From Mizuhopecten yessoensis (Eukaryota): a DNA stretch of 64,000 nt. Every line of letters begins with the position of its first letter. Positions within the stretch are counted from its first letter, which is position 1. This document shows positions 2,144-33,627 of the stretch, one piece after another. The notes under the pieces were generated by a model. That model did no database searches and had not been told where the DNA came from. It worked only from the letters and a program-made list of their open reading frames with translations. The stretch is from contig NW_018408827.1 in the NCBI RefSeq assembly GCF_002113885.1, positions 250,051 to 314,050 of the forward strand, given 5' to 3'. The position numbers were made by a program, and so were the translations under genes.

Positions 2144-3411
2144 NACATAAACATAGACAGGACAAACAGGCAGTGAAAGTAACCCATAATCATCTCAAAT
2201 GACAAAACCCTCCCCTAGATATACTAGAATTCTTGTTGAGGATACTTGTAACAGCAGTAAAAAAAGCATACCAACATGTTGACAAGCTGTTTCAAGTATA
2301 TCCTCCCATAACATTGTGGTGTGCATGTTATTGTGGTTCAGTGGATTTGTGTTGAAGACAACATGAGCAATGCAATCAGTAACCTTCATTTCAATATTTT
2401 GTAATCTTCTTGTGTGACTTTCTTTCATTTTTATCCATTTTAATGATTATATTTGTATTGGTCATTTTAATCATTGTGCGAAAGAAATAGCATCGTATCA
2501 TATAATTTGAATCTATTACATGCAAGAAAAACAAATTATTGCTGAGAAGTCTAAATCAAAACCGAGATACACATTCAAATATTAAAAATATCCGGGTTTC
2601 TTTTTATCAAATTTTAAACGATAATTTCTGTTTAATGTTTAATTTTAACATTACAACGTTAGACTAACTGTGAATAGTACAAACGTATTGTTAGTAACGA
2701 TAGACTATTGTAACTTGCACTATTTCTAATCCCTTAAAAGTCATATGCGTGTAAGAACTCTTGCATAATTATCACTAGAGAAAAAGGAAACACCTGTTTG
2801 GACACAGAAAGTAAAAGAAAGTAAAGAATTTACCGCACCATAATATGACCACCTCGTCCATCAGAATTCCTCAATCATGTACAATATAGCGAAAAGAAAA
2901 GGTACCAATAAAATCAAACCCATTTTAGCGTTTTAAATCTAAACATTCGACAACCAAACCTATATAAACTTAGACTAGAATTTCATGTAAACACTGTTAG
3001 AATAACTTCGAGCTACCAATTCAAGGCCACGGCCAACCTCGAGGACGATAGTCGATCATCTTGTTGCCTGCAATAATCACTCGAAATACGAAGAATGGGT
3101 CAGATGACATTTTTTAATGAAACATTTCTGTTAAGTGAGGAGACTTTTATCCATGAAGCACTGCTTCCTTTTTTTGTAGTGATAAATAATTGACTTTGAA
3201 TATATTTTGTACTTAAATGTTTTGTCTGTTGTAACATTTATCTTACCCAATAAACAGTAGTTGCGGATTGTCAACTTTTCGCTTTTATATTTTATTTGCA
3301 ATGACTACGTGCCACATACCAAATGTATTTTATTAAACAACAAAAAACATGAAAAACATTTTTTCTGCCATAAAATAAATTTATTCCGAATGAATATACA
3401 AACAAATTGAC

Positions 3412-5768
3412 CTATCCAACAACCATGTTACTATTGGCTGTTTTTCTGACCAAAGTGGGAAGATAATGGTTCCAAAATCGAATCCTCTCTGGGTTAACAT
3501 TATATGCTGGTGCTATGTTGATGTTCAAGTTTTGATATAACCTTCCAACTGAGTCATACCTAGGCCAGTAGGGCACTCCTGGACCGTTCGGCGAGCTGGA
3601 CAAATAAAGGGAGAAGAAAGCAAATACATGCATAGTTATAAGGAAATACAGAAAAAGATCCATCTTGAAGAAGAGCACGTGTAGATGAGAATAAAATATA
3701 AGATAGAAAAATCCTATGCAACCTTTCAAATTCTTCCAGTGCTCCGGATTAAAATTATCTCCCTTCTAAAATTCTAAAATAATTCTTTTTATATCTAATT
3801 ATTCCGAACTCACGGATAATAATCAATTTTTGAATCTTAAATTTGTTACCATATTTCAAATAATTCATTTTGACTGGAAACCATTTGAGAAGTAAATTAG
3901 CATTATTAATTGACTTAATAATAAATTATGATGATAAAATGTCTCGTTGAACAATTTTAATCAAGAATAAGTACATATTTTAACATGGAAAATTATGACT
4001 AATTCAAAAAAGTACTCAAAATTAATTTCTGTAGACACATCAGTTGAATAATTGTTCTAGATTTGCTTACTTTTTCGCATTATTTCGCTCATTTATCCAA
4101 TACAAAAATATGACTCGTGAATAAATTTGGAACCTCTTTTATGTTTCAAATCAAAAAGGTAAGTAGTTCTTAAATTATTCTGTGAAACAAAAACAAACAA
4201 AAATAGACAAACAAGAATACCCACCCTCTCTTTGCAAAATTCGTCCAATATTTGATCATATTAACCGTCAGCATTGCATCAGCCTGAGAATCGGGTTTCG
4301 ATACTGGCCATGGAAGTCTTGGTCCAAAAATATATGGAATCTCGGCGGCATGCCAAGCCCCTTTGAACCAACTTGGCTCCGGGAATGATGTATCGGGATA
4401 TTCTCTGGTAAACATATACTGGTAGGTGTTTCTTCCCATAGTCAGTCCAGGGAGTGAGTGACAGTCTAAAGCTTTGACAGCTGGAGCAACCATAAAGACA
4501 TCCGTGTACATTTCAACGATACTTCTACTCTGCTCAATTTCATCAGTTCTGCTGTATTGCTTACATATAGCGTCGGAAACGTCACTATTCCTGTTATAGA
4601 AATCCTTTGCGATCTCTCGTGCGTATGCATTACAAAGCACTGCCGTCGGAACGGCGCGAGAATAATTAAAATGATATTGTTTTTCGAGGGAAATCATAAA
4701 TTCGTCGTATATAAGGGATCCTTCAGAATCCGTATTGCCAATTATGACATCGAGAGAACGAAAGAAACTGGATTCAATCGACGAGGAATTAGCTATCATA
4801 GCACTGGGATGTTGCTTGATCAGTTCTCCATCGACTACAGGGGCAGTTGGACTGTTAAGTATATAGTTTCCGTACTTAAAAACGTCAGTGTTAATTTGAG
4901 CTTGCATAATTTCTTTTGCATTTTTCCGTCTGAAGCATTCAATTAACTTTTCAGTATCAAACGTTATGTCGTTTTCATTAAGACAATTGAGATAGATACC
5001 GTACCCTCTGGCATATTTTGGGGACTCTACACTTAATGCAAAAGGCACATTTCCTGTACCACTCTCAGCGATGACCCGTTGGAATAGACCTTGATTTTCT
5101 GCAATAAGAGCATGTATTCCGACACTAAACCCTCCGGCAGATTCACCAAAAATTGTTATATAGCTTGGGTCACCACCAAATGCCCTTATGTTGTTCTTTA
5201 CCCACTGCATTGCTAGTCTTTGATCCCACAGCCCGTAGTTACCACGCGAGGCGTTATCCATTGTACTGAGGAATCCTAATATTCCTAATCGGTAGTTTAC
5301 GGTCACCACCACGACATCCCCTACAGTAACAAGGTTAGAGGCATCATAGCCAAACGACTGGCCTAAGGTATACCCTCCACCGTGGATCCAGATCATAACA
5401 CTTTTAGTGTTGTTTAGAGAGGCGTTGCTTGGTGTATAAACGTTTAAATGCAGACAGTCCTCGGACATTTCTGAATTCGGTAAAGAAGGAAAGATATATT
5501 CCGTCCGCTGATAGCAGGACGGTCCAAAAGAAGAACCATCTAAAACATTTGTCCATCTGCCGAATGGAACCGGTTTACGCAGTCTCAGATCTCCGACAGG
5601 AGGTTTAGCATAGGGGATTTTACGGTACTGGTACATCATCTTGCCCCGATTCTGTACACCAATCCCACGAATAGGTCCCGACGCTGAATCAATTGTTCGG
5701 TAACTCTGACTGTTGACCGCAGAGAAACAGGATGCAACAAACAGCAGAACTATAGGGTACCAAACCAT
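3412..5768 (-). CDS. Type-B carboxylesterase CE1 (secreted-type, ~575 aa); coding exons 5768-4225 and 3595-3412
   Basis: Signal peptide MVWYPIVLLFVASCFSAVNS follows acceptor ttatttcag. Motifs IPYAKPP, SEDCL, WIHGGG, NYRLG, FGESAG, NTDSEG, GAWHAAE. Donor AGA GG|gtgggt and acceptor tccag|C give in-frame G-SPNGPGVPYWPRY...NMVVG*. Total 1728 nt, divisible by 3. Confidence 0.93.
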
Positions 5769-7217
5769 ACTGCCAACTGAAATAACAATCCATTGTGACT
5801 TTGATATTTGATTTGCAAATTGCTTATCGAATTGTGTCTCTGTTTTCTTAGTTATGTATCTCGGGTTAAAGCTATCACGCAATATGAACGGAACACATAC
5901 ACAGGCTACTACGCCTTAAACATTTGTAATAAATACAGTAAGCCAAAACTGAATTACGCTGCAAAGTAACGGTCACGTAGGCGCTCATAAATACCAACAT
6001 TCACGACTTATGACTTTAAACTGACAACGAAATCGATAAAGTGCATTTATGCGGTTAGATAATTTGTTCAAATTTTATTCATGAAAAAACCCTGATTGAG
6101 CTGCATTTGTGATTTGAAATACAGTTCCATACTGATATGTACATCTATTTGGTGTTTTGTTTGAAGTAAAAAGAATACTTAGTCCAAATCAGTATTAGAT
6201 TAATAATATGCTTTGTGTACGAGACAATATAAATACCTCTATTGAGGAGAATAACAACAAATGTAATGTAAAATCTAAACATGTGAATAGTGTAAGGTTA
6301 TATAACGATAAAACAGAAATAACATTTCTCACAAAATATTAGAAATAATTGACGTCAAATACGATCCATAAAATAAGCTTGTATTTCTTATAAAAAATCG
6401 TATGAAAACAGTTTTTTGTAAATATGTGCCTTGCAATCAATGATATTAACCACTTTTTAAGGGGATTTGAAAACGTGTTATTTATCATCATCATTAATGG
6501 TGCAACTGTTTCATTGAACTGTGTATTCACAAACAATTCAAGCAATTAGTTGTTGTACTTCATGCTTATATATCATTTTAAATAAAATTGAATTTGGTAG
6601 ATATATGTATTTTTAAAAAAAACAAATTTCATCTTCCTTCAGATTATTTATTGAACAAGTCGGGTTTGATATAAACCAGAAAAGATAATTGAAATTTATT
6701 ATTTGTAAAGAAAACAAATAATTTAACTGAAAAATGAATACAAGTTACTAGCTGAAATTTATTAGGCGTGTAGGCCCACCTAAGGGCACAAAGTCGGAGA
6801 ATGGTTTATGATGATACGTTATATATTCTGGCGAGGTTACAAAACTAACTGATTGGTTTCGAAAGCAAAAGTGTTCTTTCAAATATATGTGTGGATATAG
6901 ATAACTTCCCTACGACATATCGTGTTATTTCTGTTGATTTATTTTACAGGTTGTCTGATTCTTCTTTAACTTTCTGAATTTATACAATTTTCTAGATGAA
7001 TGCATCCTCGAAATTCCAGGGGTAAAGTTCTCTAACGTTCCCTGCGCCCGTGGATTATTTCATGACGAAATCAATACAGATGTCACTAATAGAGCCTTCA
7101 CTTCAAGTTAATATTGTTGACGTTGTAATATGTTTTTATTTTATCAATAAACGTTTTATAGATAAGAAATAAGCATTACTTTCCAAAGTATTGAGATGAA
7201 ATACAAACAACACCTAC

Positions 7218-7332
7218 CTTGATCGACGCCTGTTGTTAACTAGGTACCTGACCGATGGATGAGTAATCTTAATAAACAGATAAGGCATGACCATTAAAGC
7301 CGTTTGGAATATTTGACCTCATCTATATATAT
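7218..7332 (-). promoter_or_regulatory. Candidate TATA and non-coding first exon of CE1
   Basis: TATATATA at ~7324-7331 and minus-strand donor AAG|gtaggt at 7218. The CE1 coding exon starts with an acceptor 8 nt before the ATG, so an upstream exon is expected. Confidence 0.3.
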
Positions 7333-7514
7333 CTTATCATTATATGTATTGTGACATAATCATTTTAAACTACAGATAAACACGCAGAATGACCCATTTT
7401 TTAACATGCTCCCTATAAGGTAGTGTCAAATAATCCCAAACTGATACTGTAAAATAGTTTTAATAAGGAAATGTGAAAAAGACTCGTAGATTTAGATATT
7501 CTAGAAGTCCAAAT

Positions 7515-7645
7515 ATGGTAATGTACCAGTCTTATATGGTAGTGTACCAGTCTTTCTATATGGTAGTGTAACATATTCCTTTATGAAAGTGTAACATTAT
7601 CCTATATGGTAGTGTAATGCGATCCTTTATGGTAGTGTTATTATA
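7515..7645. repeat. Minisatellite (tatatggtagtgtaac-type), left segment
   Basis: At least 5 copies of atggtagtgta at ~20-25 bp spacing. Confidence 0.75.
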
Positions 7646-8068
7646 TGGGTGTGAGGGAAATATCACTTTTATTGTCCCCAAAGACATTGACTATTTCCCG
7701 AGGCGAAGCCAAGGGAAATAGTAAATGTCAAGGGGGACAATAAAAGTGCCTTTTCCCGAAATACCCATAAAATAACTGTGTTATAATACCAACAAGAAAA
7801 ATCCATTTCTTTTGTAAAGATGCATATAATAAAGCAAAATTTGTCTCAATGAAACTAAGTACGTCTGCTTCGTCTGGGTCTCGGAAACGCTTACGGAATT
7901 TATCGCAGTGTATGTGATGGAAGTAGAGATGTTCCGAAGGAACACGACAAATGCAATGTCCAATCAGAATGAACGAAGCTAAAAATCCTGCCAAAATTTG
8001 AATGCATGTTAAAAAGCTCATTCCGGGTAAATAGCTCTAATGACCATTACCTGGTAAATAGTTTCCTG
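7646..8068. mobile_element. Hairpin-bearing non-autonomous repeat (Crypton-like by resemblance)
   Basis: ~36-bp imperfect inverted repeat 7664-7699 / 7713-7748 around the loop gaggcgaagccaa. It interrupts a minisatellite array. The family is not verified. Confidence 0.5.
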
Positions 8069-8523
8069 AACAAGAGGCCTGTGGGCCTTAACGGTCACCT
8101 GATGTATTTATACAGAGAGTTGATTTTGTTTTTAACATGAACAAAAATAGTATTCAAAGTGACAAAAAAAAAACAATAAAACCATCTTATTCAATATCTA
8201 GCATACAGATTTAAGACTAAAAAGTATTTGAAACTAGCACCTCTGATTCTAAACAAGGAAAATGAAGATATTTTAGCACAGAGACACCTTTGGGCCCTAC
8301 CCTACAGCCCTTGGGGCTAGGGCTGGCTCAAACTTTTCAAAGTATCAAACTGTCAACTCAGGGTTATAATTCAAATCAAGTTATTAACAAGTAATATTCA
8401 AAGTATCATTTTCCATTATAAACCATAATAATTTTTGCCCCCCCCCCCCCTCCTTCCCTAGGGGGTAAACTTGAGACTCATAAACCTTAAGACCCTTCCA
8501 TCTATGAAGAGTGTTTGATTCTA
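8069..8523 (-). mobile_element. Partial HINE/pearl-type element (terminal palindrome end), truncated at N
   Basis: aacaagaggcctgtgggccttaacggtcacctga and the following ~360 bp match 50347-50710 and 54677-55045. Confidence 0.85.
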
Positions 8524-8575
8524 NCAAAAGTTTAATACAGGAAATGTTTGACTTCTCATAGGTGTACATCCTTAA

Positions 8576-8720
8576 GTGTAACATATTTCTATATGGTAAT
8601 GCAACCTATTTCTATATAGTAGTTAAGATATTTCTATAAAGTAGTGTAACCTATTTCTATAAAGAAGTGTAACCTATTTCTATATGGCAGTGCAACATAA
8701 TTCTATGTATAACATTATCC
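8576..8720. repeat. Minisatellite (24-bp unit, gtagtgtaacctatttctata-type), right segment
   Basis: About 6 tandem copies are visible. Confidence 0.8.
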
Positions 8721-10107
8721 TTTGATTCGTTCTTTTGATCACAATACAAAATGCTAACTGGTGAACATTGAAACAATAAGATTTTGTTATCAGGCTATTC
8801 GTTAATTTTTTGTTTTGTTGTTCTGTGCAAATGGAGGTATAACCGAAACAAGGCAGTCATTCTGAAAACCTTTCGACTTTCGATACGTCATCTATATGGC
8901 CCTAAAGGTAATGAATTGGAATCGACAGTATGTATGACGATTTTGCAATATTGAGCGATTTCAATAGAATTCTGTTATTTACCATATGACCACCCTATTA
9001 ATGCATTACGTAATAACATCACATAGTTGTTCCTTATGTTACGTGTTCTAAGCACTTGGATTGGAATGTTTTGCTGTAAATGATCAGTGGCACTTTTGGC
9101 CAACAAGGTAAAGTGTAGTCCTCCTCTTATGTATAAATTATGGTCCTCGTCGTCAAGCGATCATTTCATGAAGAGTTTATTAAAATCCATCTTATAGTCC
9201 GCCCCCAAACCCAATGGTTTGTCAGCATCTTTTGAGTGTCAATTCTTTATATCAGCACCTAAGACTGATTCGATCAAAGTTCGGGCTAGAATTATCAGAA
9301 GCTTACTACCTTTTGTACCATCCCACATCCACAGCATTCCCTTTTTTGCGCATTTTGAGCACTTTGCCCTACCACTTGTTGTACTTTGAAGTTTTAATCA
9401 TTACATTCAGAGGAGAAGTTGATTGACGTCTATATTCTATGATTTCTTTAATCACCCATTGATAATTATCATAAAAGTTCTGTGATGGTTGATTAAGGTA
9501 TGTAACATACATAATGTATGTGGCAGACTTTCAATTCAGTTATGATTAACGTTTCGAATTATTCCAAAGTCAAACTGTGGAAGGCAGCAGCACCATAATA
9601 GTAACATGTAGATATACCCGAAGTTTTCATTATATCCGACCCAAAATATATACACGGTAGCAAATATTGATTTATTAAAATGATCCTTTTATAATTAATT
9701 CACACCAATATTTTGCTAACGAAACAGGAAGGTCTTTCAAATATCTAAATCAAAAGAATCCGTACCTTCCGTTTAATAGGAATTTTACAGTTCCTATAAA
9801 AAAAAAACATGCATTGGATTAATTGAATAATTAGTTAATTGGAATATATATGAATTAATCATGACCCAAGTTATCTTCCTTTCAGCAAATTAGCGTTTAT
9901 ACTTGACGGGGCATTGAATATTACTATTTTATATACATAATAAAGATGTTAAAGATGAGGTTTAAGCTATAACAAATGTATTGCCAATGACTAAATGTAA
10001 CAAGTTAGTTATACAAATCTGAGTAATCACAGAAAAGTTGGTAAACACAAACTTTATTTCCAAAATGCAAACATCACAAAATCATTACAATAACTCGTAC
10101 AACGTGA

Positions 10108-13075
10108 TTATCCTACAACGACATTTGGAGTATTCTTCACCAGTGATGGAAGGTACTGGTTCCAGAACTGAACCCTATCCAGCGTCACGTGATATTCTGG
10201 TGAAATGTTGCTGTCCAGGCGTTGATAGAGCCCGCCTATTGGGTCGTATCTAGGCCAATAGGGAAGACCGGGACCATTCGGGGAACTGTTGGATGAAATG
10301 ATTGAATCGTTATTTCAAATAAAATCAAATGTAAGTTTTAATTTGGATTTCAAACATTTACAGACGGATTATAGAAAAATCATATTTTCTATTCAAGATT
10401 GACCCAGGAATATTAGCTCAGAATATACATAATACTTTGCCTACTAATCGATTGCAAAATTGCTGATTAATGAAATGTTTCGTGGACCAAACTGAGACAG
10501 AAAGTAATTACGGATTGTCAAGTTGCTCAGAAATAGATCTTGATCATACCTAGACTGTGTTTAAACAAGCACGTGTAAATCTGAACCAAGTTAATAAGAA
10601 AAAGGAAAATACAGCAAAGCTGCAAGGGTACAAAATCTTTCATGAAAATCGCTTAGTGAGAGATGTCAGATAAGTGTCCAAACCTAGAACGGAACGGATC
10701 CCGTATACTTTCATTTATTCTTCATCACATGTTGACTGTTGCCACTGAATAAGTGTCCCAATGTACCAATAATGTAACTTTTTCATTGAACGTTTAAGTA
10801 TCCGCAATTTGGTAATCATCTTAAAACTGCAAAATGTACATTGTATGCATTGAATGGAAAGTACAGTTCTGATTGAACAATTCTAAAAGTGATATTTTCA
10901 CGGGGTTTTCCATGGTTAATTATATATACTGCACTGGTAAAAAATATTGATAGGGGTTTATTTTTTTATTTTTGTACATAGTATGCGGCCTCAATTTACA
11001 ATAAGGTTTTCATGCATGGGGAAGAACCAGAAGTGGAGAAACAGTTAACAGATAAAACCCTTTCAGTATTTCGGGCCGCTTACGACTTGAAATAACCAAG
11101 ATATTTAAACAGGCAAATATTTTGGTAGTTTTATCGAACTATGCATCGTCATCATACAGTGATATTTGCATTTTTCTATGGTTGAATTTTTTGTGGTTTT
11201 CGTCTTATTAAGAATTATGGTCATTTAAGTACGTGCCAGGTTTTGATGGTGAGGGAAATCCTGAGTACCGGGAGAAAAATCACCGACCTGCGGTAATAGT
11301 TGGAGATTGCTCTAAGTAGGCCTTTAACCCGCGATCCAGTCGCAGAGCGCTAGTGAACTCGGCCACCGCAACCCCCTTCTATGTTTTATCATTTTCTTGA
11401 TTGTTATTTGATGTTCAAAGTAATATCGTGTTTTAGATTCCCACTGGAATTCCTCATTGAACTGCTGCAAGAAAAACAAGGTTATGTGAAAGTTATATTA
11501 ACAATATGATACGTTAAAGTGGAAAGGGAAATAATGAACCAACACATACCCGTTCTTAGCAAAGTTGGTCCAATACGTCGTCATGATCAAAGAGAGTAAC
11601 CGATCCACATTGTTTGTAGCACCGTCAAACTTGAACAGATACCTCAGTTCTAAGCCATGTCCCGCCCCAACAAACCATGACGGTCGGTTGTCCATTGTCT
11701 TTGTTACTTTGGTAAACATGAACTGATAAGTATTTCTGCCCATGGTCAGACCGGGGGATGAATGACAGTTGAGCGTGCTGACAGTAGGGGCTACCATAAC
11801 TCCATCAGTGTACATGTTGATGACGTTTCTGCTCTGCTCAACGATATTATTGCTTCTGTACCTTTGACAAATGGCAACAGCAACAGCCTTGTTTCCATTG
11901 AAAAAGTCTTTTGAAAATACCGGCGAAAGCACATCACAGAGAATGCGAGTTGGTATAAAAAGTGAAGCATTGAAATTATATTCAGCTTCTAAGGACTCTA
12001 TGCCGAGGTCGATCAGAAGCGAACCTTCAGCATCTGTATTGCCAAACATGGCATCCAAAGACCGGAAAAAATTTGAACCCGCCGAAGAGATATTGGCCAT
12101 CACATCTTCAGGAAAAGACTTTATAAGATCCCCATCAACTACAGGGGCGTCTTTGAGTGGAATGTTATACTTTGTGTATTTTTTAACATCTAGATTCATT
12201 TGGGCTCGTAGAATTTCTGAAGCAGGTTTTTCTCTCAAACACTGAACAAGTCCAGCAGAATCGACGCTGATATCATTCGCATGGATACAGGTTAGAAATA
12301 TACCATACCCTCTAGAAATGTTCTTCGCCTCTAAACTCAATGCTAAAACAGAATTAGCGGGCCCACTTTCTCCAATTACACGTTGGAACAGGCCTTGATT
12401 TTGTGGGTTAAGCGCATGTAACGCCACACTCATAGAGCCAGCTGATTCCCCAAAAAGTGTTACCGAGTCTGAATCACCACCGAAGGCTGCGATGTTTTGT
12501 TTTACCCATTGAATTGCAAGCAGCTGATCCCATAAGCCGTAATTTCCAAGAGAAGAATCGTCCATTGTACTGAGAAAACCTAGCAGTCCTAATCGGTAAT
12601 TCACCGTGACGACAATAACATCCCCGATATTAGCGAGAGGGGAGGCGTCATATAAGGTCGCCTGTCCTGCAACGTAGCCTCCTCCGTGTATCCAAATCAT
12701 CACACTCTTCTTGTTTGTTGGGGAAGCATTGGAAGGTGTGTACACATTCAGCTGGAGGCAGTCTTCAGACATTTCTCTGTTTTGAAGTGTAGCAGAAACA
12801 TACTTTCGATCTTGTATGCAAGATGGACCAAATGAAGTTGCATCAAGGACATTTGTCCAGCCACCAAATGGAACCGGTTTCCGCAGTCTCAAATCTCCGA
12901 CCGGGGGTTTAGCATAAGGAATATTTCGGTACTGATATACTAATTGGTCTCTGTTTTGTACGCTTATCCCCTTAACCGGTCCAGATGGTGTTCGTATTGT
13001 CTTGTAACTCGCACAATTTGCTACACTCGCACATACTGCCATTAGCACCAGCACAACTGGCGCACATACCGTCAT
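10108..13075 (-). CDS. Type-B carboxylesterase CE2 (secreted-type, ~567 aa); coding exons 13075-11550 and 10285-10108
   Basis: Signal peptide MTVCAPVVLVLMAVCASVANC. Triad FGESAG, NTDAEG, GAGHGLE. Donor AAC GG|gtatgt. Terminal exon (not in ORF track) after aacag reads SPNGPGLPYWPRYDPIGGLYQRLDSNISPEYHVTLDRVQFWNQYLPSLVKNTPNVVVG*. AATAAA on the minus strand at 10058-10053. Confidence 0.93.
11175..11378 (-). mobile_element. Degenerate tRNA-derived SINE in the CE2 intron
   Basis: The minus strand starts ggggttgcggtggccgagtt (A-box-like), then cgcgggttaaaggcc (decayed B-box) and a gcaggtcggtgatttttctcccggtactcagga core. A related decayed core lies at 27090-27215. Confidence 0.6.
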
Positions 13076-13799
13076 TTTCGACGAATTTCTGAAAAGAAAT
13101 ATATAAGTCAATATGATAAACAAATTGTGTACGTACATCTGGATCTCCTGTCGCAGATGGTTACATGTATTAATTTATTCGATCAAAGCTTGTCAGGTGA
13201 TGTAGTTCAGTTGTTGTAAAAACGGTTCCATGTCGCTGTCTTTTTACTTACAATTTGTTCGTGGTATTTTGTATATCAGAACCCTTAAAACATGTGTTTT
13301 AATTCTTGTGACTTTACTTCGTATTTCTAGTAAGTGTTTCCCAGATTATGAACGCGTTTAACATAATAACAATAAGATATACTTTATTCATCAATTTTGT
13401 TTTTCTCGCAAAAGAAGAGGTTCGGCGAACATTTAAGGATTTTTTGTTTTATTTCATGAAATTCTAAAATACATAATCTTAAATATGAAAATATTAGATA
13501 TATTATAGTCGTTAAGAAATGAGGAAATTATGGTAATGACTTCAAAGCACGTGATGCGTACATCTGAACGGCCTTTTACGGGAACCTTGTCTAACTTACA
13601 GTTTCAATCATTTCGGTTTACACAGATTTATTATTATATCACAATCATAAAAATATTCTGTTTAAAAGATTTTCCACAAAAAGAATGAGAAAGTTTCCTA
13701 TTAATTAAATTTCGCACATACGACATTATTTATAACTTTATGTCAATGCAGATAGTATTATCAGTTAGTGTAAAAGTAAATAAACATGCAACAAATTTN

Positions 13800-14059
13800 C
13801 GTGAGACCCCAGCGTCAAGAAATTCACATTTTTGGTAAAGCACCTTAAGACCCTTCCATCTATGAAGAGTATTTGATTCTACCATATCTGGGTCTTGAGA
13901 AGAAGATTTTTGAAATTTTAGACAATTTGACCCTTTTTGACCCGCCCCTCAGGCCCCTGGGGAGACCAACCAGGCCCCTATTTTTGTTGACCTTTGGCCA
14001 TGGAAGATTTCTGCAAAATTTCATTGAAATTGGTTCATGGGTTTTGGAGAAGAAGATTT
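13800..14059 (-). mobile_element. Internal fragment of the HINE/pearl-type element
   Basis: Near-identical to 13-275 and 51186-51450. Confidence 0.85.
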
Positions 14060-14134
14060 CGGATTTCGCACATACGACATTATTTATAACTTTATGTCAA
14101 TGCAGATAGTATTATCAGTTAGTGTAAAAGTAAA

Positions 14135-15063
14135 TAAACATGCAACAAATTTTTTACATATAACAGTAACCTTAATGAACTTTGTGAATCAAGCATCACA
14201 CAATATGTTATAATATATATTGTAAACTTCGGTAATTGACAAAATATTTAATGAAGTCTTACCTGTATTGGCCAATCCGGTCGTATCAAGGATCACAGAC
14301 CAAGTGGCAAATGTCGGCTTGGTAAGAAGGGTCAAGTGATCGATAAAGGCGATGCTTGCTTGATATTATATAATATTGGAGACATCAGGCTGGCTTCACG
14401 TACGCTGTGGACTTATAAATTATCTCATCTTCACTGATACGACAACAGGCAGCATTTGTGGACACGTGTACTATGATATCAAATTTACGTAAAACAAAAT
14501 GTTGGCTATGAATGATTTCAATAAATTCGAATACAATTAAATTTTAAATCGCTTATATTTGTCAAATTAGTATGGCATTTATTTTAAGTTTAGAATCAAT
14601 CCTAGANTAAACATGCAACAAAATTTTTACATATAACAATAACCTTAATGAACTTTGTGAATCAAGCATCACACAACATGTTATAATATATATTGTAAAC
14701 TTCGGTAATTGACAAAATATTTAATGAAGTCTTACCTGTATTGGCAGATCACAGACCAAGTGGCAAATGTCGGCTTGGTAAGAAGGGTCAAGTGATCCCA
14801 TAAAGGCGATGCTTGCTTGATATTATATAATATTGGAGACATCAGGCTGGCTTCACGTACGCTGTGGACTTACAAATTATCTTATCTTCACTGATACGAC
14901 AACAGGCAGCATTTGTGGACACGTGTACTATGATATCAAATTTACGTAAAACAAAATGTTGGCTATGTATGATTTCAATCAATTCGAATACAGTTAAATT
15001 TTAAATCGCTTATATGCGTCAAATTAGTATGGCATTTATTTTAAGTTTAGAATCAATCCTAGA
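14135..15063. repeat. Near-identical direct duplication 14135-14606 / 14608-15063 across a single-N join
   Basis: The copies differ by a few substitutions and an 18-bp indel (caatccggtcgtatcaag). Probably two alleles assembled in tandem. Confidence 0.85.
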
Positions 15064-15079
15064 AATTCCTATCAATAAC

Positions 15080-15345
15080 TGTCTTTTATTTGGATTGTCT
15101 TTAAAAATCGAACAATGTATTGACCATGTCGATCGCATATACCTCATGAAACTAAAAATGAACGTCACTACAGACTTTTCATCTTCTGCTTGCCTTGATC
15201 TTTACCTTCAACATGCTTACAAACAGGGGTGCCTTACTACTAAGCGTGAATGTTTTGATTTTCCGGTCGCGAAACTTCCTTTTCTTGATAGTGACAACCA
15301 TGCTTCTCCAACAACGGTATTTACATGTCGTAGTCGATTCGGAAT
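15080..15345 (+). mobile_element. Decayed Penelope-like retroelement reverse transcriptase fragment
   Basis: Translation VDRIYLMKLKMNVTTDFSSSACLDLYL...LTTKRECFDFPVAKLPFLDSDNHASP resembles the PLE RT C-terminal pattern IYPxEL...TT..SASYLDL...LYDKRDDFxFxIVNFPFLxSNIPxSP. Confidence 0.7.
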
Positions 15346-15582
15346 TTAGGAGTTATTTATTTGTTTGTTAGGGGTTTAACCTCCTTGCAATGGTCATTTA
15401 AAGATATATAAGGGAGGGAGACAGGGAAGATAAGGGTAGAAAGAAAAGAAGTATTGCAAAAGAGGCTGCTGATTGATTTTGCTTTCTTGAATGTCCTCTT
15501 CAAAGACGACACAGAAGAAAACCCCAGATTCTGCAAAGGGACCAATATTAGTCGTCTCTTACGACAACATACAGCGACATCT

Positions 15583-16439
15583 TCTTTCCTAAATCTACAG
15601 GTGGGATTTGCGTGATAAATGTCGACTGCTGAAAATTTCGAGAGATGCAAGTGGATGAATTATATGGGAAAACTGTATGTTCGTTATTATTATCTTATTA
15701 TAATTCTTCAGTTGATATGAAGGTGTATGTTTTGATTGTGCTCATTATATTTCGATGTTGCTTCGTCATCAGTGCTCCTGTTCTCTCTTTGAGAACGTGA
15801 TATTACTTGGGTTTGACCTAGATCTAGTTTACATAGTTGGTGTCGTCGATGTAAGTATTTCCTTTATTCACATTTTGCCCTAGTTTGCTCGATTGTGAGT
15901 TCACGTTTTGAGTGATGCAATTGCACATCAAGAATAATTTAAAGAAACAAGATGTTCTGAACCATTTCTTGTTTTTTATATTTTATATATTTCATTGAAA
16001 TATCTAATNTTTCTTTCCTCAAACCTACAGGTGGGATTTGCGTGATAAATGTCGACTGCTGAAAATTTTGAGAGATGCAAGTGGATGAAATTATATGGGA
16101 AAACTGTATGTTCGTTATTATTATCTTATTATAATTCTTCAGTTGATATGAAGGTATATGTTTTGATTGTGCTCATTATATTTCGGTGTTGCTTCGTCAT
16201 CAGTGCTCCTGTTCTCTCTTTGAGAACGTGATATTACTTGGATTTGACCTAGATCTAGTTTACATAGTTGGTGTCGTCGATGTAAGTTTTTCCTTTATTC
16301 ACATTTTGCCCTAGTTTGCTCGATTGTGAGTTCACGTTTTGAGTGATGCAATTGCACATTCAGAATAATTTAAAGAAACAATATGTTCTGAAACATTTCT
16401 TGTTTTTTATATTTTATATATTTCATTGAAATATCTAAT
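15583..16439. repeat. Near-identical direct duplication 15583-16008 / 16010-16439 across a single-N join
   Basis: About 430 bp repeated with only scattered substitutions; probably an allelic overlap. Confidence 0.85.
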
Positions 16440-17591
16440 ATTTTATAGTATCAATATCGATGTAAGTATCGTTTATGCGATAACCGGGCATCATTGTCGG
16501 GATATGCTAATCACATTATTATACGTGGAAAACAGTATGTTTGTATACAGCAGCTTATAAATAATGATATACTGTAAACGCGTTTTTTGAGGTGCTGTCT
16601 GGAACAGTACTAGTACGAAGTACACGTACGTAATAAATGGTATGGAGTTGATCGCCGCTTAGTTCATCAATGATTTGATATTTATCAAAACATAACAGGA
16701 CCTTGATACAAACAACGTACCCATTGCATGGTAATTAATGGGTAACTGGTAACAGGTGAGGCTGCTTTGTTAACGTTTTATATGTGTGTACAGTACGTAC
16801 ATGTATATGTATATATACCAACACACATATCGATTAAGGCCGTTTCAAAACAATGCGTTTATTACTGTTAGAGAAATAGATAACCATACTAATCCGACTG
16901 AAACATGGAAACATCCTTTTAATCTGGCCATTTCTTAATTTATACATGTATCAACTACGATACCTAACGCTATTATCGCACAGTTTTTCATCGGCACATT
17001 GTGTAACCCATTACTGTATATATTCTTCAAAAGGCTAACGACGAACTACGTGGTGGGGGGTTTTCATGTAAGTTACATCTTTTACTTTTGATTGGAAAAT
17101 ATAATGTGTATACATATTTATATAGCACAGCTAGTTGTACCTATTTTACTGGTCAATTGTCTAAAGAAGATAACAGAGTAAAATTACACTAATCGACACA
17201 TGTTAATATGTTGCTGATATACTCTTTAAATCGAATGTGTGTCAAAATGATTCACCGTTCAGGTTGCTCGTACTGGTTAAACGTTAGATAGCGATAGCGT
17301 TTTTCTGTTGCTAGTGTGTTTACGATTATTTTTAATGCAACTGGCACAGAAAGACAGGCGGAACAGGTAAATATGTGTGTCATCTACCTCAATTATTGAT
17401 CGTTTATAATACTTGTAATTTAAACATACAAGTTAAACTAAAATCAAAACTTAAAAGTTCATTGTTTTGGAGTTGCAATATGTCACTATGTATTGCTAAA
17501 CTATGCGTAGTGTTAACATTATAACATTATGTTTGTTTATATTATCGTGTACATGTCTTATGTGATTTCTGTTCTCGTTTTCATAGACATT

Positions 17592-19857
17592 ATGGGGATG
17601 ACGATTGCAATATGGCTTCTAATGATGTCATTCATAGCATCTGATGTGGATTGTCAAATATTCAATAGTGTGAACACATCGTTGGGACCTGTAAGGGGAC
17701 TGAAGACATCTGTCCTAACCGGAAACATATACCAGTTCCGTGCAATTCCTTATGGAAAAGCTCCGATGGGAGAACTAAGACTTCGCAAACCGGAACCATT
17801 CGGGAAATGGTCTGGAACCTATGATGCAACGAAATTCGGTCCAAGTTGTGTGCAGGATATGAATACATTTAGAGTTGGAGATAATTTCTTACCCAACTAC
17901 AACATCTCCGAAGACTGTTTGCAGCTCAATATATTCGTTCCAACATCAGCGTCTCCTACCAACAGGAAGTCTGTGATAGTGTGGCTGTACGGTGGTGCTT
18001 TTGTGTCTGGACAAAGCGGTCTGTACGACGGTTCTTATTTGACCTTTATTGGTGACGTCATAGTGGTCACTTTGAACTACCGTGTTGGTATTCTAGGTTT
18101 TTACAGTACAGGGGATGACGCTGCACCTGGTAACTATGGACTGTGGGATCAGTTACTGGCAATAAGATGGATAAAAGACAATATTGAGGCTTTTGGTGGA
18201 AATTCTAACTCCATAACACTGTTTGGCGAATCAGCAGGAGCTATGAGCGCGTCTATTCATGCTCTTAACCCAAACAATAAAGGACTCTTCCACAGGGCAA
18301 TCTTTGAGAGTGGAACAGCGAATCAGGAAGCCGCATTTAACCTTGAGATTCCTGCATATGCTCAAGAGTATGGTATTCTTCTTAACTGCACAAATGATAA
18401 CAACAAACACCCTAACACAACTGAGATGGTGGATTGCATTCGCACAAGATCCGTACAAGAAATATTAAAAAGTCAACAAGAGCACGTGGTGAAGAAATAC
18501 GGTGAGTTCATCCTGGATTTCAGCATATTCCCGGTAGTGGACGGAGACCTAATTCCAATTCATCCCATGATTATTATTAAGAATGCCTCCTCGCCAGCAT
18601 ACCAGTTCCTTCAATCTCTTGATGTTATTGGAGGAACAAACAGCGGAGAAGGCTCACTGTTGATAGATTACCATGGGAAAAGCATGGAAAGGCTTTGGGG
18701 ACTGAACTTAACAGAGGGCATATCAACTGACGATTTCTGTTCCAAAATAGCAACAGAAATTGCCAAGGACTTCTATCACAACCGTTTGCATGTAGCTAAG
18801 GAGATTTGTCTGATGTATACGTCTGATGTTAGTGACCAAGACCAAGCACTAAATGTTACTAAGATGTATGGCGATATGGTGATGCAGGCTCCAACTGTCT
18901 CCTACCTTGACAGACATGCCAAAGACAACACACAAAGCAACACATTCCAGTATCTTTTATCCCATGAAAACTGTATAAAGTACCACCGGGATCCATCTTG
19001 GTTCAAGGGTTTTCCACACGCCAGTGACCTGCCCTACTTGTTCAGGCCAAATTACATTGGTACACTGATCAATGCGGATTGTCCTGAGGATACGAAATTG
19101 TCTGACAGATTTATCAAATACTGGAGTAATTTTGCGAAGACTGGGTATGTATTTCTACATTTCAGAAAGAACATTGGCTGTGTGTTTTAAGAAACTACTA
19201 GATATTGAATGAGATGGTATCAAAACTTTTATTTGATTAAATATCATGTTTTGTAATGTTCTGGAAAGAATCAATTATCAATCATAAGCATTTGGTTTTT
19301 GTATTCCATTATTCACATAAACATCAACACTTAAATAGGCGAGAACTAAAATGCATTTACCTTCATAGAAAAGGAATTCACAGTTTCTAAATTAATATAT
19401 TAATAGATATGAAAAGTTCCAGATAAAATATTCTCGGATCAACCTTACGAAATAAAATGACATTTTCGCTAACTTATCTCTTAAAACACTGACCTTCAAA
19501 GTTCTGAAATTTATAAAAGAATAACTGATCGTGCTTTAACTCGTTGGATATACATGTATATGTATGTATATCTATTTTAAAAGCGATCCGAACGGTGCTG
19601 GACTACCGGACTGGCCTATGTATAACCTGACGAGTTATAGGTACTTGAACCTGAACAACAACGCCACTGATGAAGGAAGATTGTATTGGGATAGAGTTCA
19701 ATTCTGGAACATCCACTTACAATACGCAAGGATGGACAAAATAAACAGCAGTGACACGCAAATCAACGGCAGCTATAGCCAGATTCATTATAGCAGCATC
19801 GTCTACATTGTAACAGCACTGCTCGTGGTCTTCCTGGTGCCGAGAGGCGTGCTGTGA
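17592..19857 (+). CDS. Type-B carboxylesterase CE3 (~608 aa, hydrophobic C-terminal tail); coding exons 17592-19144 and 19584-19857
   Basis: Acceptor tttcatag at 17586, then signal peptide MGMTIAIWLLMMSFIASDVDC. Motifs WLYGGAF, FGESAG, TNSGEG, GFPHASD. Donor ACT GG|gtatgt, acceptor aaag|C GAT CCG. AATAAA at 19985. Confidence 0.93.
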
Positions 19858-22536
19858 ACAATCGTTGTACACTCAGTTAATCATTATATATAGACATATA
19901 GATGACAATGATTACGTTGATAAATGAACTGTTGAGATACCAAAATAACTTGTACATGCACATCAACACATCAGTACAAGATTAAATAAAATAAAAACAT
20001 AGTATTTGATGTATTTTGCTTAAACAACTGATGTTCGTTCTCCAACGTGTTCAAATCAGCATACAAATTTATTTCAATTAGTTTGTATTAAGCATAAACC
20101 TGTGTAAATAACACTCTATTCAGAATCGAAATACGGCGTTTTGTTGTGTTTGTGTAAACAGGTTTCACTGTTAAACATTTACAATATTCAGTATGGTGTT
20201 TGTTTAAGATATTTGGACAAAGTATTCTCCTTTGTTGTTTAAATACACTTTTTGAAAAAAAAGTTCGAAAATAAATTGAAGACAGCACAAGGCAACAAAT
20301 CATGAACGAGACCTATTAACTGACAGTTTGTATCAAATTAACGATCTTAATTTATGAAAAAAGGCAATAAAATCCAAACGAAGAAACAGTTATTGACCCG
20401 ATATCAAAATCACAAATATCGTATGTATTAAGTATGTACATATGTAGCAACCTCTTTCCAAAAATGTGAGTATATAATATTAACATTGTTAGATAAAGAT
20501 CGAGCAAAAACGCGTGTCTATGTTGTCAGATACACACTGTACCTCACGCTCCTTCTCATTTACAGGTAGGTTAATTCCGTTATCGCAACGGGGTGTGACC
20601 TATATTATGAACTGAATGTTTGTTATATGGTCACGTGGTCAGCTATACGATATAAAGGAGGAGAAACAAAGTTAATACTATTTGAGTATTTCAAGTACAA
20701 CAATCATTTTGTGTAGTTTATTTAATCACAACATTATAAATCCGACAATTTTACATTTGTTTAGTTACAGACATCACGTAATCGTTCAGTTGTTATCAAA
20801 ATTTAAAACATAATGTCTTTACTACATTTGTACGTCGATGATCAATGCAGTAGGTAACTTTGCTATTATTAACGGGGTTTAACGTCTGCATAACAGCTGG
20901 GGTCCTAGTATAGCATGTACCTCCTTTCCAAAATAATATTCTGCACTAAACAACTTTTACGACCGGAATGAGGATAACACGTTTGAATAGTCCATAGAAA
21001 TGTAAATATCGAAATTACTGATATGTCCCCTACACAAATTACATCTATATTTTGTCCGGCACATATAACCAAATATTCCAGTTAACTACATTCATTGAGG
21101 ACACACACAACAAGTGTGAAAGGTAGAAAACCCGCCATATCACAAAATAAGTCGCGGCTTCTTTTCGTTTTTAAAAAAAAAAATCCCGAGCTTTTTCTTG
21201 AAGCCTTCCCATTTTCAATGTCGTCTTATTTTCAAAGCCATTTCCATGGTAAAGCGTATACGGCTTATTTTTAAGGTCTATTTCCTTTCGAAGCATTTAA
21301 AACAATAGAAACTGAATTGCCATTAGAAGTCGGGTTTATTAGATACTTAAAAAATACTTTCAAAAAAAGGCGTATTACGTGTTTACTTATTTCATTTTCT
21401 ATAAATATGTATTATTTTAATTCAAAAATAAAAATATCTTTATTATTGATAGTAATGTAGAAGTATTTTGTAATGCATTTTTATGCATACAGGCAAGCTC
21501 AGCAAACTGTTTTCCGTTTTTGCAAAACAACAGCATATATTCCAATGTATATGAGAATGGTATACGACAACACGACAAATAAATACTATACTATTGGCTA
21601 GTTTGTTTTTAACATACAATTAATTGCAACTGAGATTTATGGGGTTTATATATACATATACTAAATATATAGCAAAGCCTCCAGTACCGTAGGTAACTGA
21701 GCACGAAAGAGATTCGGTGAACTAGACCCATACAATACTACATCATCACAACATATTTGCAAATATCAAATTTTGAAACCACTAATCTTTACCATTTTGC
21801 AGGTTTTGTGAATATGCGACAACAAATCCTCCGATTAACGCTTGATTAATTGATAACAATTATGCAGCTTTATTGATTATAACTCTTCAGTGTAAATGTT
21901 TATTTCATCAAACCGAATTTCCCCGGATAAACATATTTTATACACGAATCACATGGAAATAATTTAAATCATAAATTTTTATGACAAACAGAAAAAAATA
22001 TGGTACGATTCGATAAAATACGATTCAGCAATGTTGATATTTTTTGTCATTCCTAAATGCTCTTCCTGTTCCCTACAGCACCTCTGGTTAGCCCGTTGTT
22101 AGCATATTCTGACCGGCTGTAGTGTCAACCATACTACCGTATCCAAGTTGTGACACTTCAGTAAGATAGCACTGTAAAATGACATCCGAGTAGTGCCATC
22201 GTCTGTTCATACCGTTTTGATATAACCTTAAGAAACAGACGCCATCTGATACGAATAACATTCTAACACGCTTCATAAAGCAATTAAAATCATTGTAAGA
22301 TGACAACATGTAGTCTCTTCAATGTAGATTGAAGATTCAGGCCCCTTGCTGCAAGCCATCAACGTCGGTATGATAGCAGGGATTGGACAGGGTACATGTA
22401 GGTACAAGTAGCTGGTAAAAGTGGATTTTAAGAGTGTTAACGGGATGAACATTGTTTAATCACCCTTCTCTATCAGCAAAATATTTCCGTGGCTCAGTTA
22501 TCATATACTCATCGAATAAAACGTCACAGTACACAA

Positions 22537-22609
22537 TATAAAATGCGTATAGGTTCAGCATATCAAACAGAAGACAAGTTTATTTGAAAGGACAACAGAC
22601 ACAAGTCAG
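22537..22609 (+). promoter_or_regulatory. Candidate TATA box and short non-coding first exon of CE4
   Basis: TATAAAA at 22537, a strong donor CAG|gtatgt at 22609/22610, and acceptor ttccag at 23173 just before the ATG. Confidence 0.45.
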
Positions 22610-23184
22610 GTATGTGGGTTAATGTGTATACACATCCATCGGATACATTATGCACGAGATAAACATTTCCATTCGTATACGTAAAAAGACAATTTTCTCT
22701 AATCTGATTTCGGTAGGTATTGTGGGTACATATTTAATTCATGCTTTTTGGATAGGTAGGGATATACATTCTATATATTATTGTATACAGAGAAATGTTT
22801 GCTAAAGTTTAATTTTCGTCTTTTTCGCACTCCGTGAAGAAGGCAATTTTATCATTATAGCGAATAAAAAAAAAAGAAGTGCGAAATTAATACTGGGCGA
22901 AACATTTCCAGTATACCGTAAATCCTTCATATCTGTTTGATGCTGTTCAAGAAGAAAAAAAATGCGTGAAACATTAATATCAGATTTTTTGCTGGACACT
23001 TTTAATAGTACCTAATCTTTATTAGCAATTTTCTATACAATAAATTTGAACCCATTGCATGTTATTCAACATATATGTTATTCAACATACACGTTTTCAT
23101 ACATTTTGAAGTCTGCTTCATATTGGCTATAAAGGTTGTAAAAACTATTCATATTTTTTTCTTTTTCTTCCAGACATCTCAAAA

Positions 23185-25223
23185 ATGGAACGTAGCACGT
23201 TCATATTACTGTTCGTGACTGGTTTTGTAAGCTGTGTCCAGTGTACCATCTTTAGGACAGTGCGTTCACCGTCCGGACCAATTAAGGGGATTGGTGTACC
23301 TTACCAAGGCAATACGGTATTTCAATACCGAAATATTCCTTATGCTGAACCTCCATTGGGAAATCTGAGGCTACGGAAGCCGGTGCCACACCGAACATGG
23401 ACGGAGGTTTTAGATGCAACAATGTTCGGTCCTTCATGTAGTCAAGACATTGCCCGTATTAAAAGTATCCTTCAAAAACTGCCCAATAGAAACTTTTCTG
23501 AAGACTGTTTGCAACTCAATGTGTATACACCCAACATCGCCTCATCACAAAACAGAAAGAGTGTCATGATATGGGTCCACGGGGGAGCCTACATGTTAGG
23601 ACAGGCCTCATTATATGACGCAACACTTCTAGTAACTGAAGGAGACGTTATAGTAGTCACAGTGAATTATCGTCTTGGAGCACTTGGCTTTCTCAGTACA
23701 GGCGACGATGCAGCACGTGGGAACTACGGTCTATGGGACCAACGATTGGCTTTTGAATGGGTGAAAAATAACATTGCATCTTTTGGCGGTGATCCTGACA
23801 CGATGACCATATTTGGGCAATCAGCGGGAGCCTTTAGCGTAGGCCTCCACGCCATGATGCCAATGAACAGAGGCTTATTTACAAGGATAATTTCTGAAAG
23901 TGGAGGACAAAGTTCTAACATAGCTGTCCGATCAGATCCAAAACCTGTTACATTTAGATACGGTCGTGCGATCAACTGCATAAAAAATGCAGACAATCAA
24001 ATTGATACGGCAGCACTTCTTCAATGTCTTAGGGAGAAACTACTGACGAAATAATCGAGGCACAACTAAACCTCAACTCCACTGTGTATGGGGGCGATTA
24101 TAGTATCGAATTTATGCCAGTTGTTGACGGAATTTTAATTAGGGCAATGCCCGAGGTTTTACTTTCGAATTCCGCATCTGAGGAAAACAAGTTCTTCAGA
24201 TCGTTAGACGCTATATACGGTACATCAAACACGGAGGGAATTAGCGCAACCATTGTCGCTTATGGTTTGCAAAAGAGGTACGGATTCAATGCCACGCTTG
24301 AAATTCCTAACATTGTTCTACATGACGAGTTTGCACCAACCATTTCCCGGCTTTTCTACAATAACAACGAGCAAGTGTCACGTGCTATTTATGATGAATA
24401 CAGTAGTGAGGATACGCTTGAGCAGAGTAAGAATATGTTGGATTTGTTCACAGATTATGTATTTCTTGCTGCAACAGTCGGAGCGCTAAACTCACATTCA
24501 CTTGCTGGTTCTGTCCCATCGGGAAATACTTTCCAGTATTTATTTACTGGAGAGGGTATTATTGAAGGCCCGTTTGTTCTTCCTGTATATTTCAAAGGAG
24601 CGTGGCATGGAGCAGAATTGTCTTTCCTTTTCGGCTTAAATGGTCCAGGGAATGTGCTGAACAAAACTGCGGATGGAAATGCTCTAAGAAAAAAAATGAT
24701 TTCCTATTGGACCAACTTCGCTAAGCATGGGTAGGTTAACTTTAAACAACTATTCATATTAAATGCAACTTTTTTTATCAATTATTATGTGATAACTTCA
24801 GCATGTTTCACATTTAATTGTGCAGGAAATACGTATCATGTACGTAATGTATATTTTATTCTGATTTTGGTATATTGGTATGTATGTATCTATGTCCCTA
24901 GTTTTGTATATTTGAGCAAGAAACTCAAACCAAACTATACTTAATTTCAAAATAACTATAGTGATATGATATTATCATCAATGTTTTAAACAGTTATGAC
25001 GAAATAATAAGTACAGATGATGTATTTTTTATAATTATTCAGCAACCCAAATGGTAAAGGACTCCCCCGATGGCCTACCTACGACCCAATGACAGCTGAG
25101 TACTTAAACATCAATACAGTATCATCAACAGGAAGTCACGTGGCCGCGGATAGAATGAGGTTTTGGAATTGGTGCATCCCGTCACTACTAAAAATCGGAT
25201 CCAATACCATCGTAGGAAAGTAA
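23185..25223 (+). CDS. Type-B carboxylesterase CE4 with a 1-bp frameshift at ~24037-24039 (sequence error or young pseudogene); coding exons 23185-24730 and 25043-25223
   Basis: ORFs 23185-24054 and 24084-24734 join if one A is added to GAG AAA (A)CT ACT GAC, giving LREKTTDEIIEAQLN. Motifs FGQSAG, SNTEG, GAWHGAE. Donor CAT GG|gtaggt. Terminal exon reads NPNGKGLPRWPTYDP...FWNWCIPSLLKIGSNTIVGK*. AATAAA at 25434. Confidence 0.88.
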
Positions 25224-33600: not shown

Positions 33601-33627
33601 GCGACGTGTCAGCACCAGGAACTATAA
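27662..33627 (+). CDS. Type-B carboxylesterase CE5 (~574 aa, ends HQEL); coding exons 27662-29205 and 33447-33627
   Basis: Acceptor ctacag lies directly before the ATG. Motifs WIHGGGF, atypical FGMSSGG, TDKEG, GTPHTAE. Donor TAT GG|gtgaga, then a 4.2 kb intron and acceptor ttgcag|A AAC CCA. Terminal exon (not in ORF track) reads NPSDITLPKWSPYTEDDGYFYNISFVPASSSTHVFRDRVSFWMSEVPQIVKATCQHQEL*. AATAAA at 33835. Confidence 0.9.

Follow-up and report, generated by a model that had tools for sequence, protein, structure and literature searches.

Neuropeptide precursors carry a C-terminal X-Gly signal, with or without a following Lys or Arg, for peptidylglycine alpha-amidating monooxygenase (PAM), and amidation is usually treated as a modification of peptide hormones. 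HXEL is the endoplasmic reticulum (ER) retention signal of mammalian carboxylesterases, and to our knowledge short luminal C-terminal addresses are few in animals. Here we analyzed a window of 64,000 nucleotides from the scallop Mizuhopecten yessoensis (G000:C5500:250051-314050; all positions below are window coordinates), which encodes six type-B carboxylesterases, CE1 to CE6 (PF00135, above the curated cut-off). The proteins CE1, CE2, and CE4 share a C-terminal ending of two hydrophobic residues and a glycine, optionally followed by a basic residue (phi-phi-G), for which an amidation-type tag with a putative function is the best reading.

Comparison of the scallop tails with the described systems revealed the following likenesses and differences: (i) as in neuropeptides, a predicted signal peptide is combined with a terminal Gly and an optional basic extension, whereas the tail sits on folded esterases and, as predicted, lectins instead of peptide precursors, the amide is predicted from sequence, and the two hydrophobic residues before Gly are conserved across families in scallop; (ii) KDEL/HDEL and glycosylphosphatidylinositol (GPI) signals stand at the same position as phi-phi-G, directly past the last helix, and paralogs end in HQEL, KTEL, or a GPI-type tail, whereas phi-phi-G has neither an acidic residue nor the terminal Leu and comes nowhere near the length of a GPI signal; (iii) bile-salt-activated lipase (CEL), from the same Pfam family, has a conserved short hydrophobic end with Pro upstream (KEAQMPAVIRF in human, according to the available part of PMC5844766), whereas this tail lacks a terminal Gly and follows long mucin repeats, and the scallop tails are undocked in structural models and are also predicted on lectins; and (iv) the closest solved structures, mouse Ces2b (9grb) and Ces2c (8axc) and acetylcholinesterases, have the same fold (TM-score ~0.8) and catalytic motifs; the scallop enzymes are themselves ordinary and already annotated, and only their tail is in question. 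The earlier note on this DNA presumed that amidation normally applies to peptide hormones. This premise is too narrow: in the available part of PMC6919629, intact Chlamydomonas proteins above 50 kDa appear amidated in gel slices, among them Cre03.g204500 (GATI-amide), a large protein of this alga with a Gly-rich flexible end, and the accessible text of PMC6343775 describes amidated IgG heavy chains.

The three tail-bearing genes and their tails are as follows.

CE1, 3412..5768, minus strand: carboxylesterase of 575 aa, with its coding sequence in exons 5768-4225 and 3595-3412; the N-terminus resembles a signal peptide, and the GESAG, Glu, and His motifs are present.
CE1 tail, 3412..3432, minus strand: SNMVVG-stop, with the core V-V-G-stop; AATAAA at 3380-3385, minus strand.
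CE2, 10108..13075, minus strand: carboxylesterase of 567 aa, with its coding sequence in exons 13075-11550 and 10285-10108.
CE2 tail, 10108..10128, minus strand: PNVVVG-stop; AATAAA at 10053-10058, minus strand.
CE4, 23185..25223, plus strand: 575 aa; coding exons 23185-24730 and 25043-25223.
CE4 tail, 25200..25223, plus strand: SNTIVGK-stop, codons GGA AAG TAA TAG; AATAAA at 25434-25439.

All six genes of the window are built of a long exon, a phase-2 intron, and a short last exon. The catalytic Ser motif is present in each; in CE1, CE2, and CE4, which are mutually 49-59% identical, the Glu and His motifs were identified as well. The N-termini are hydrophobic in all six; a crude hydropathy check, used in place of a dedicated predictor, gave 9-residue values of 3.0 for CE1, 3.4 for CE2, and 2.8 for CE4, a signal-peptide-like stretch that points to secretory entry.

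The tails were re-read from the window and agree in sequence and position with the earlier note. Those of CE2 and CE4 are true protein ends by RNA, and that of CE1 by identity to an annotated protein. The CE2 intron 10285/11550 is crossed by 63 spliced reads with 37 distinct starts. Transcript contigs of CE4 from three studies are spliced at 24730/25043 and cross the stop codon unspliced; the RNA type of these runs was guessed, and among the indexed runs no holder is recorded as RNA. An extra A behind 24036 in the CE4 contigs of all three covering runs removes a frameshift of the window, and CE4 is thus likely to be intact, with an assembly error or a rare allele near 24036. Spliced CE1 is identical to the annotated M. 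yessoensis protein P0002 (575 aa, named cholinesterase); its 5' intron 5776/7218 is supported by 3 reads, and no spliced reads were found for its last intron at the low depth available.

The ending is real, but it had first been mis-specified. The linkers between the RxxFW helix and the end differ in length, as had been noticed (19 residues in CE1, 17 in CE2, and 18 in CE4), and vary in sequence. The Asn that had been included in the motif does not belong to it, being present in only 5/12 members of the CE1/2/4 clade and in 6/27 tail-bearing esterases. In contrast, the terminal Gly is found in 12/12 clade members, and both preceding positions are V, I, L, or F in 12/12, whereas positions -4 to -10 vary. 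As read from these sequences, the motif is hydrophobic-hydrophobic-Gly(-Lys/Arg)-stop, and the 27 tail-bearing esterases share the consensus [P/A/Q]-x-x-phi-phi-G, 14 of them having Pro at -6. The Gly is followed by a stop in 19 of the 27, by K in 6, and by R plus 2-3 residues in 2, so that 25/27 end in G or GK. The alternation of G and GK, proposed as an amidation signal, held up in this larger set: the residue after Gly, where present, is Lys or Arg in 8/8 cases from about four lineages. These Gly-basic pairs are encoded as GGA AAG, GGG AAA, GGC AAG, or GGG AGG; the codons, together with the CE4 transcripts, rule out read-through of a splice donor as the origin of GK.

From the composition of the tails, a phi-phi-G ending is expected by chance with a probability of ~0.003 per tail. 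The claim that three paralogs share the ending is correct as to the tails themselves, but they are not independent observations; because CE1, CE2, and CE4 group together as a single clade (SH-aLRT 98), the three tails of the window count as one inherited event. What lifts the motif above chance lies outside the window, in the paralogs, the tree, and the lectins.

The conservation in orthologs that the earlier note had called for was observed, with the tail in all 12 clade members from five scallop-type sources. The tail was also found in mussel and oyster esterases, so that the named carriers are scallops, Mytilus, Ostrea, Magallana, and, weakly, Pinctada; homologs were sampled from bivalves, and a third search returned mostly fish neuroligins and added three scallop orthologs. 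Tails were classified in 113 homologs and window proteins whose last exon is complete, which leaves aside ENA/Logan calls that stop at the intron: 22 end in phi-phi-G(K/R..), 2 in x-phi-G(K), 34 in xxEL, 30 in a GPI- or transmembrane-like tail, including P0087, in which FMG closes a GPI-like tail, and 25 otherwise. The 33 terminal exons in the M. yessoensis genome, CE5 included, divide into 8 with phi-phi-G, 10 of the xxEL type, 10 of the GPI type, and 5 untagged. Thus, phi-phi-G occupies the slot where paralogs have KTEL/HDEL-type or GPI-type tails, and each class excludes the others. The other three esterases of the window represent the alternatives.

CE3, 17592..19857, plus strand: 608 aa; groups as the sister of the CE1/2/4 clade; has, in place of the motif, a long hydrophobic tail that resembles a GPI signal.
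CE5, 27683..33627, plus strand: 567 aa; last exon 33447-33627; ends in HQEL (ER-retention-like); intron spliced in run X7.
CE6, 37863..39970, plus strand: 557 aa; last exon 39823-39970; stops 7 residues past the last helix motif, untagged.

The ends of CE1, CE2, and CE4 (VVG, VVG, and VGK) do not match xxEL, which is found in CE5 and 9 paralogs, and they have 2-3 hydrophobic residues as against the 15-20 of a GPI signal, a stretch shown by CE3 and 9 paralogs; the tail of CE3 is a putative GPI signal by its shape.

In a tree of 50 esterases, calculated without P0090, the tail trait needs 7 changes, compared with a mean of 14.2 and a minimum of 9 after shuffling. A single clade of the 16 tail-bearing rows was rejected (p-AU 5e-6, without P0163, which ends in PFGK). 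The tail is also kept between an oyster and a scallop protein (P0220 and P0225) that are only 42% identical. On these sequences, the ending is a conserved tail class in bivalve esterases.

A predicted second family of carriers was reached through the DNA. A pattern with corrected spacing led to two tandem C-type lectin genes (PF00059), in which the last lectin exon has a phase-2 donor and is followed, 3-4 kb on, by a tiny exon for the peptide YEADPDSIIG or YSEDPDSIIG, closed by a stop and with AATAAA behind it. A genome search with the lectin exon of these discovery genes gave 43 matches, for which 40 downstream stretches were examined: a donor lies 5 nt past IC[EKQ] in 25, the lectin exon has another kind of end in 12, and parsing failed for 3. 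With the two discovery genes excluded, an in-phase last exon of 7-16 aa that ends in phi-phi-G-stop was found within 4 kb in 16/23 lectin genes, as against 4/115 wrong-phase or opposite-strand controls (Fisher p 3e-12); a looser first pass had given 15/21 vs 20/105. Examples are DADASELIG, SSYGSEIIG, TSANPGIIIG, and ATSNTSSPVIG; candidate mini-exons of this kind lie, among other places, at ~93.0 and ~108.2 kb of G000:C4717, at ~541.9 kb of C359, and at ~43.9 kb of C3365. When each of fourteen alternative final residues was substituted for Gly in the test, 0-2 of 21 genes matched (Ala 0, Ser 2), which is about the background. Blind DNA patterns of an acceptor plus the motif returned four further lectins with phase-compatible tails (L240, L335, L336, and L337), and a signal peptide is visible in L240 and L336. 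A tiny in-phase last exon is therefore predicted to add the phi-phi-G ending to scallop lectins. Three other lectin loci have variant candidate mini-exons, ending in GTIG (L294), IQLG (L295), and IQFG (L321).

The models place the tail outside the fold. CE1 is modeled at pLDDT 94.5 as an ordinary esterase fold, with a TM-score of ~0.8 against Ces2 and neuroligins, in which a helix runs to residue 570 and only 5 residues follow, with pLDDT 63; in the AlphaFold model of P0225, residues 589-599 are below pLDDT 50 (tail 42). Since the tails lie outside the fold in these models, they are predicted to be unstructured and accessible, as befits an amidation substrate; the models are weak in this region, as few alignment rows cover the tail.

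Taken together, the ending is likely to be a shared, undescribed tag on secreted proteins, and we consider it very probable that it is selected and portable. Portability is suggested by its occurrence on two unrelated families, the esterases and, as predicted, the lectins. We propose the following chain of events: (i) the proteins would enter the ER via their signal peptides, (ii) an enzyme of the carboxypeptidase E/D type (CPE/CPD) would trim Lys or Arg where present, (iii) PAM would turn the Gly into an amide, leaving Val-, Ile-, Leu-, or Phe-NH2 (-58 Da), and (iv) the uncharged hydrophobic end on its flexible linker would be bound by a partner, which may be either a cargo receptor that serves a single secretory route or, where the proteins arrive, a surface of mucus or lipid. 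We give this whole chain, from secretory tag through trimming and amidation to recognition of the hydrophobic amide, a probability of roughly one half. Amidation in vivo by itself appears somewhat more probable than the complete chain.

Trimming followed by PAM amidation fits best because the Gly is strict and the extensions are exclusively basic (8/8). By a rough estimate, a one-base loss of the stop codon gives Lys in ~1 of 7 cases, and about four lineages that are all basic are therefore unlikely to have arisen by drift. PAM prefers a hydrophobic residue before Gly. A C-terminal Gly is all that PAM requires, and CPE/CPD strip Lys and Arg, according to the available part of PMC6313938; PAM is found throughout metazoa, as stated in the accessible part of PMC6529398. 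Conservation of the hydrophobic pair hints at a binding partner.

Several observations weigh against this proposal. As to the enzymes, the genome gave 33 PF03712 matches; the two exons checked match dopamine beta-hydroxylase only, and no PAM gene was identified from these two. For the tails IVGRGTE and IVGRET, endoproteolysis at a single Arg would be required in addition, and since a stop turns into a Lys codon by a single change, GK could arise by stop loss. Amidation could be incidental, since for the amidated IgG heavy chains (-58 Da) an effect on activity was not observed, as far as the accessible text of PMC6343775 goes. As to the distribution, the ending is documented for two families only, the esterases and, as predicted, the lectins. 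The lectin tails were read from DNA alone, with a tail-bearing lectin as the query, and within the family they may go back to one inherited event; the unrooted esterase tree fits both repeated gain and an old trait repeatedly replaced. Among pancreatic-type lipases the strict motif was found in 0/120, with one loose match (AVG), and among ependymins in 0/5 visible ends (8 matches). Because these families are without it, the ending is not a general mark of secretion. Genome-wide DNA patterns that combined the motif with AATAAA were not clearly more frequent than their reversed controls (29 vs 44 in a set with wrong Pro spacing, 30 vs 34 after correction, and 43 vs 40, 42 vs 34, and 11 vs 9 in the others). 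Finally, the co-expression in one tissue that the earlier note had suggested as a test was not seen: in runs X1 and X2, which had been selected for CE4, this gene has a depth of 35 and 26, respectively, and CE2 is absent in both.

Most of the genome-wide matches look like chance and were used only as leads; those in NHLRC2-like, vWA-domain, and apolipophorin-like genes were set aside for this reason. No third tagged family was found by Pfam scans of upstream frames and by inspection of 12, 12, 14, and 10 upstream stretches, and the one visible end among beta-lactamase-like loci is without the motif. At L241 (G000:C3489:164850-174800), an exon with no Pfam match is followed by a candidate tiny exon encoding DNPIIG-stop with AATAAA, possibly a third tagged family. 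An ESM Atlas search with two tails returned noise only (scores <0.9). A full-text search of the mollusc literature found no description of such a tail, a passing mention being possible in figures, subscription journals, or bioRxiv supplements beyond its reach. Among Lottia shell peptides (PMC3374290, supplementary file 1), none ends in IIG, IVG, VIG, or VVG in the 68 of 72 occurrences covered; this list is uninformative, as it comes from another animal and amides were outside its search.

The strongest alternative, clearly less likely than the amidation proposal, is that the tail is read unmodified: a receptor or another partner would see the two hydrophobic side chains and the free Gly carboxylate, as the KDEL receptor sees xxEL, and Lys would be removed by carboxypeptidases, with amidation absent or incidental. 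Such a tag would suit the slot shared with xxEL and GPI-type tails and the predicted lectin mini-exon. The hydrophobic pair also favors it, as PAM demands no particular residues before Gly (available part of PMC6313938) and their conservation thus points to a partner, and so does the amidation of IgG, for which an effect was not observed (PMC6343775, same portion). However, a pure binding pocket need not insist on Gly over Ala, and in the lectin test Ala and Ser did not rise above background; a free Gly end in a secretory pathway that contains PAM would be its default substrate (PMC6529398, available part), and no receptor candidate was found.

In an improbable alternative, the tail is an esterase-specific structural element, for example an active-site plug as in bile-salt-activated lipase, and the lectins have an element of their own for structure or dimerization, alike by chance. 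A C-terminal plug of the active site is reportedly present in bovine cholesterol esterase (2BCE; said to be from Chen et al. 1998), and the Pro at -6 in about half of the esterase tails agrees with this comparison, as does the membership of human CEL, with its conserved 11-residue tail (PMC5844766, available part), in the same Pfam family. Against it, the tails are undocked in the AlphaFold models of CE1 and P0225, a weak point given the few rows that cover them, the CEL tail has no terminal Gly, and the lectins share the ending without having such an active site. The reading that the tail has no function, with three tails from one ancestor and the other matches due to chance or relics, is equally improbable and already largely refuted: it agrees with the single clade of CE1, CE2, and CE4, with the loss or absence of the tail in the sister lineages P0103, P0099, and P0078, and with the missing bulk excess in the genome, but not with three last positions that stay fixed in 12/12 while the adjoining linker drifts, with the tail kept from oyster to scallop, with the low chance expectation per tail, or with the lectin mini-exons (16/23 vs 4/115).

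As an ending shared by bivalve esterases and, as predicted, lectins, phi-phi-G would be a new trafficking or tethering code that alternates with ER-retention and GPI tails, and it would divide large gene families of immunity and detoxification according to where the products go. As a tentative extension, bivalves might possess, next to KDEL and GPI, a third address at the C-terminus, in which phi-phi-G, capped as an amide by PAM and recognized by a dedicated receptor, would send folded enzymes and lectins to a single secretory destination, for instance mucus or granules, or tether them there; in lectins it would be a plug-in mini-exon, and among esterases it would have been repeatedly gained or swapped. 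One regular expression suffices to search any mollusc proteome for the ending. Recombinant versions that are C-terminally tagged or made in bacteria would lack the native end.

Other observations concern the esterase tails of the genome. The tail IVGRGTE belongs to L074 (G000:C5485:460000-464700), whose Argopecten ortholog ends in IVGRET and which adjoins a paralog ending in SSRYT; it is possibly a decayed or a cleavable form of the tag. In L014 (G000:C3775:73061-76222), a KTEL paralog is lengthened to KTELKIDRK, an extension that would hide its ER-retention signal. A tandem multi-domain carboxylesterase at G000:C1714:453928-461429 (L005-L009, L012) has last-exon segments fused in frame to the next domain and a GPI-like end. 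For CE5, a contig of run X7 joins a 5' exon at ~26165 to the last exon (33446) and skips the catalytic exon; the short side of this joint is 27 nt, and the normal joints are also present.

In the remaining part of the window, exons of another gene, one of them Pro/Gln/Ser-rich, lie at 49273-60127 on the minus strand and gave no match in Pfam, NCBIfam, or the PDB; we presume one of them to be SEC31-like (COPII coat), which these databases did not confirm. A minisatellite array of 1.6 kb with a core of 17-34 bp and a strong C skew separates CE5 and CE6 (34337-35982). Dispersed repeats at 7900-8600 and 13800-14060 show a very high transcript depth that is drawn from elsewhere in the genome, and a unit resembling them is found at 51276-51602 and near the window start.

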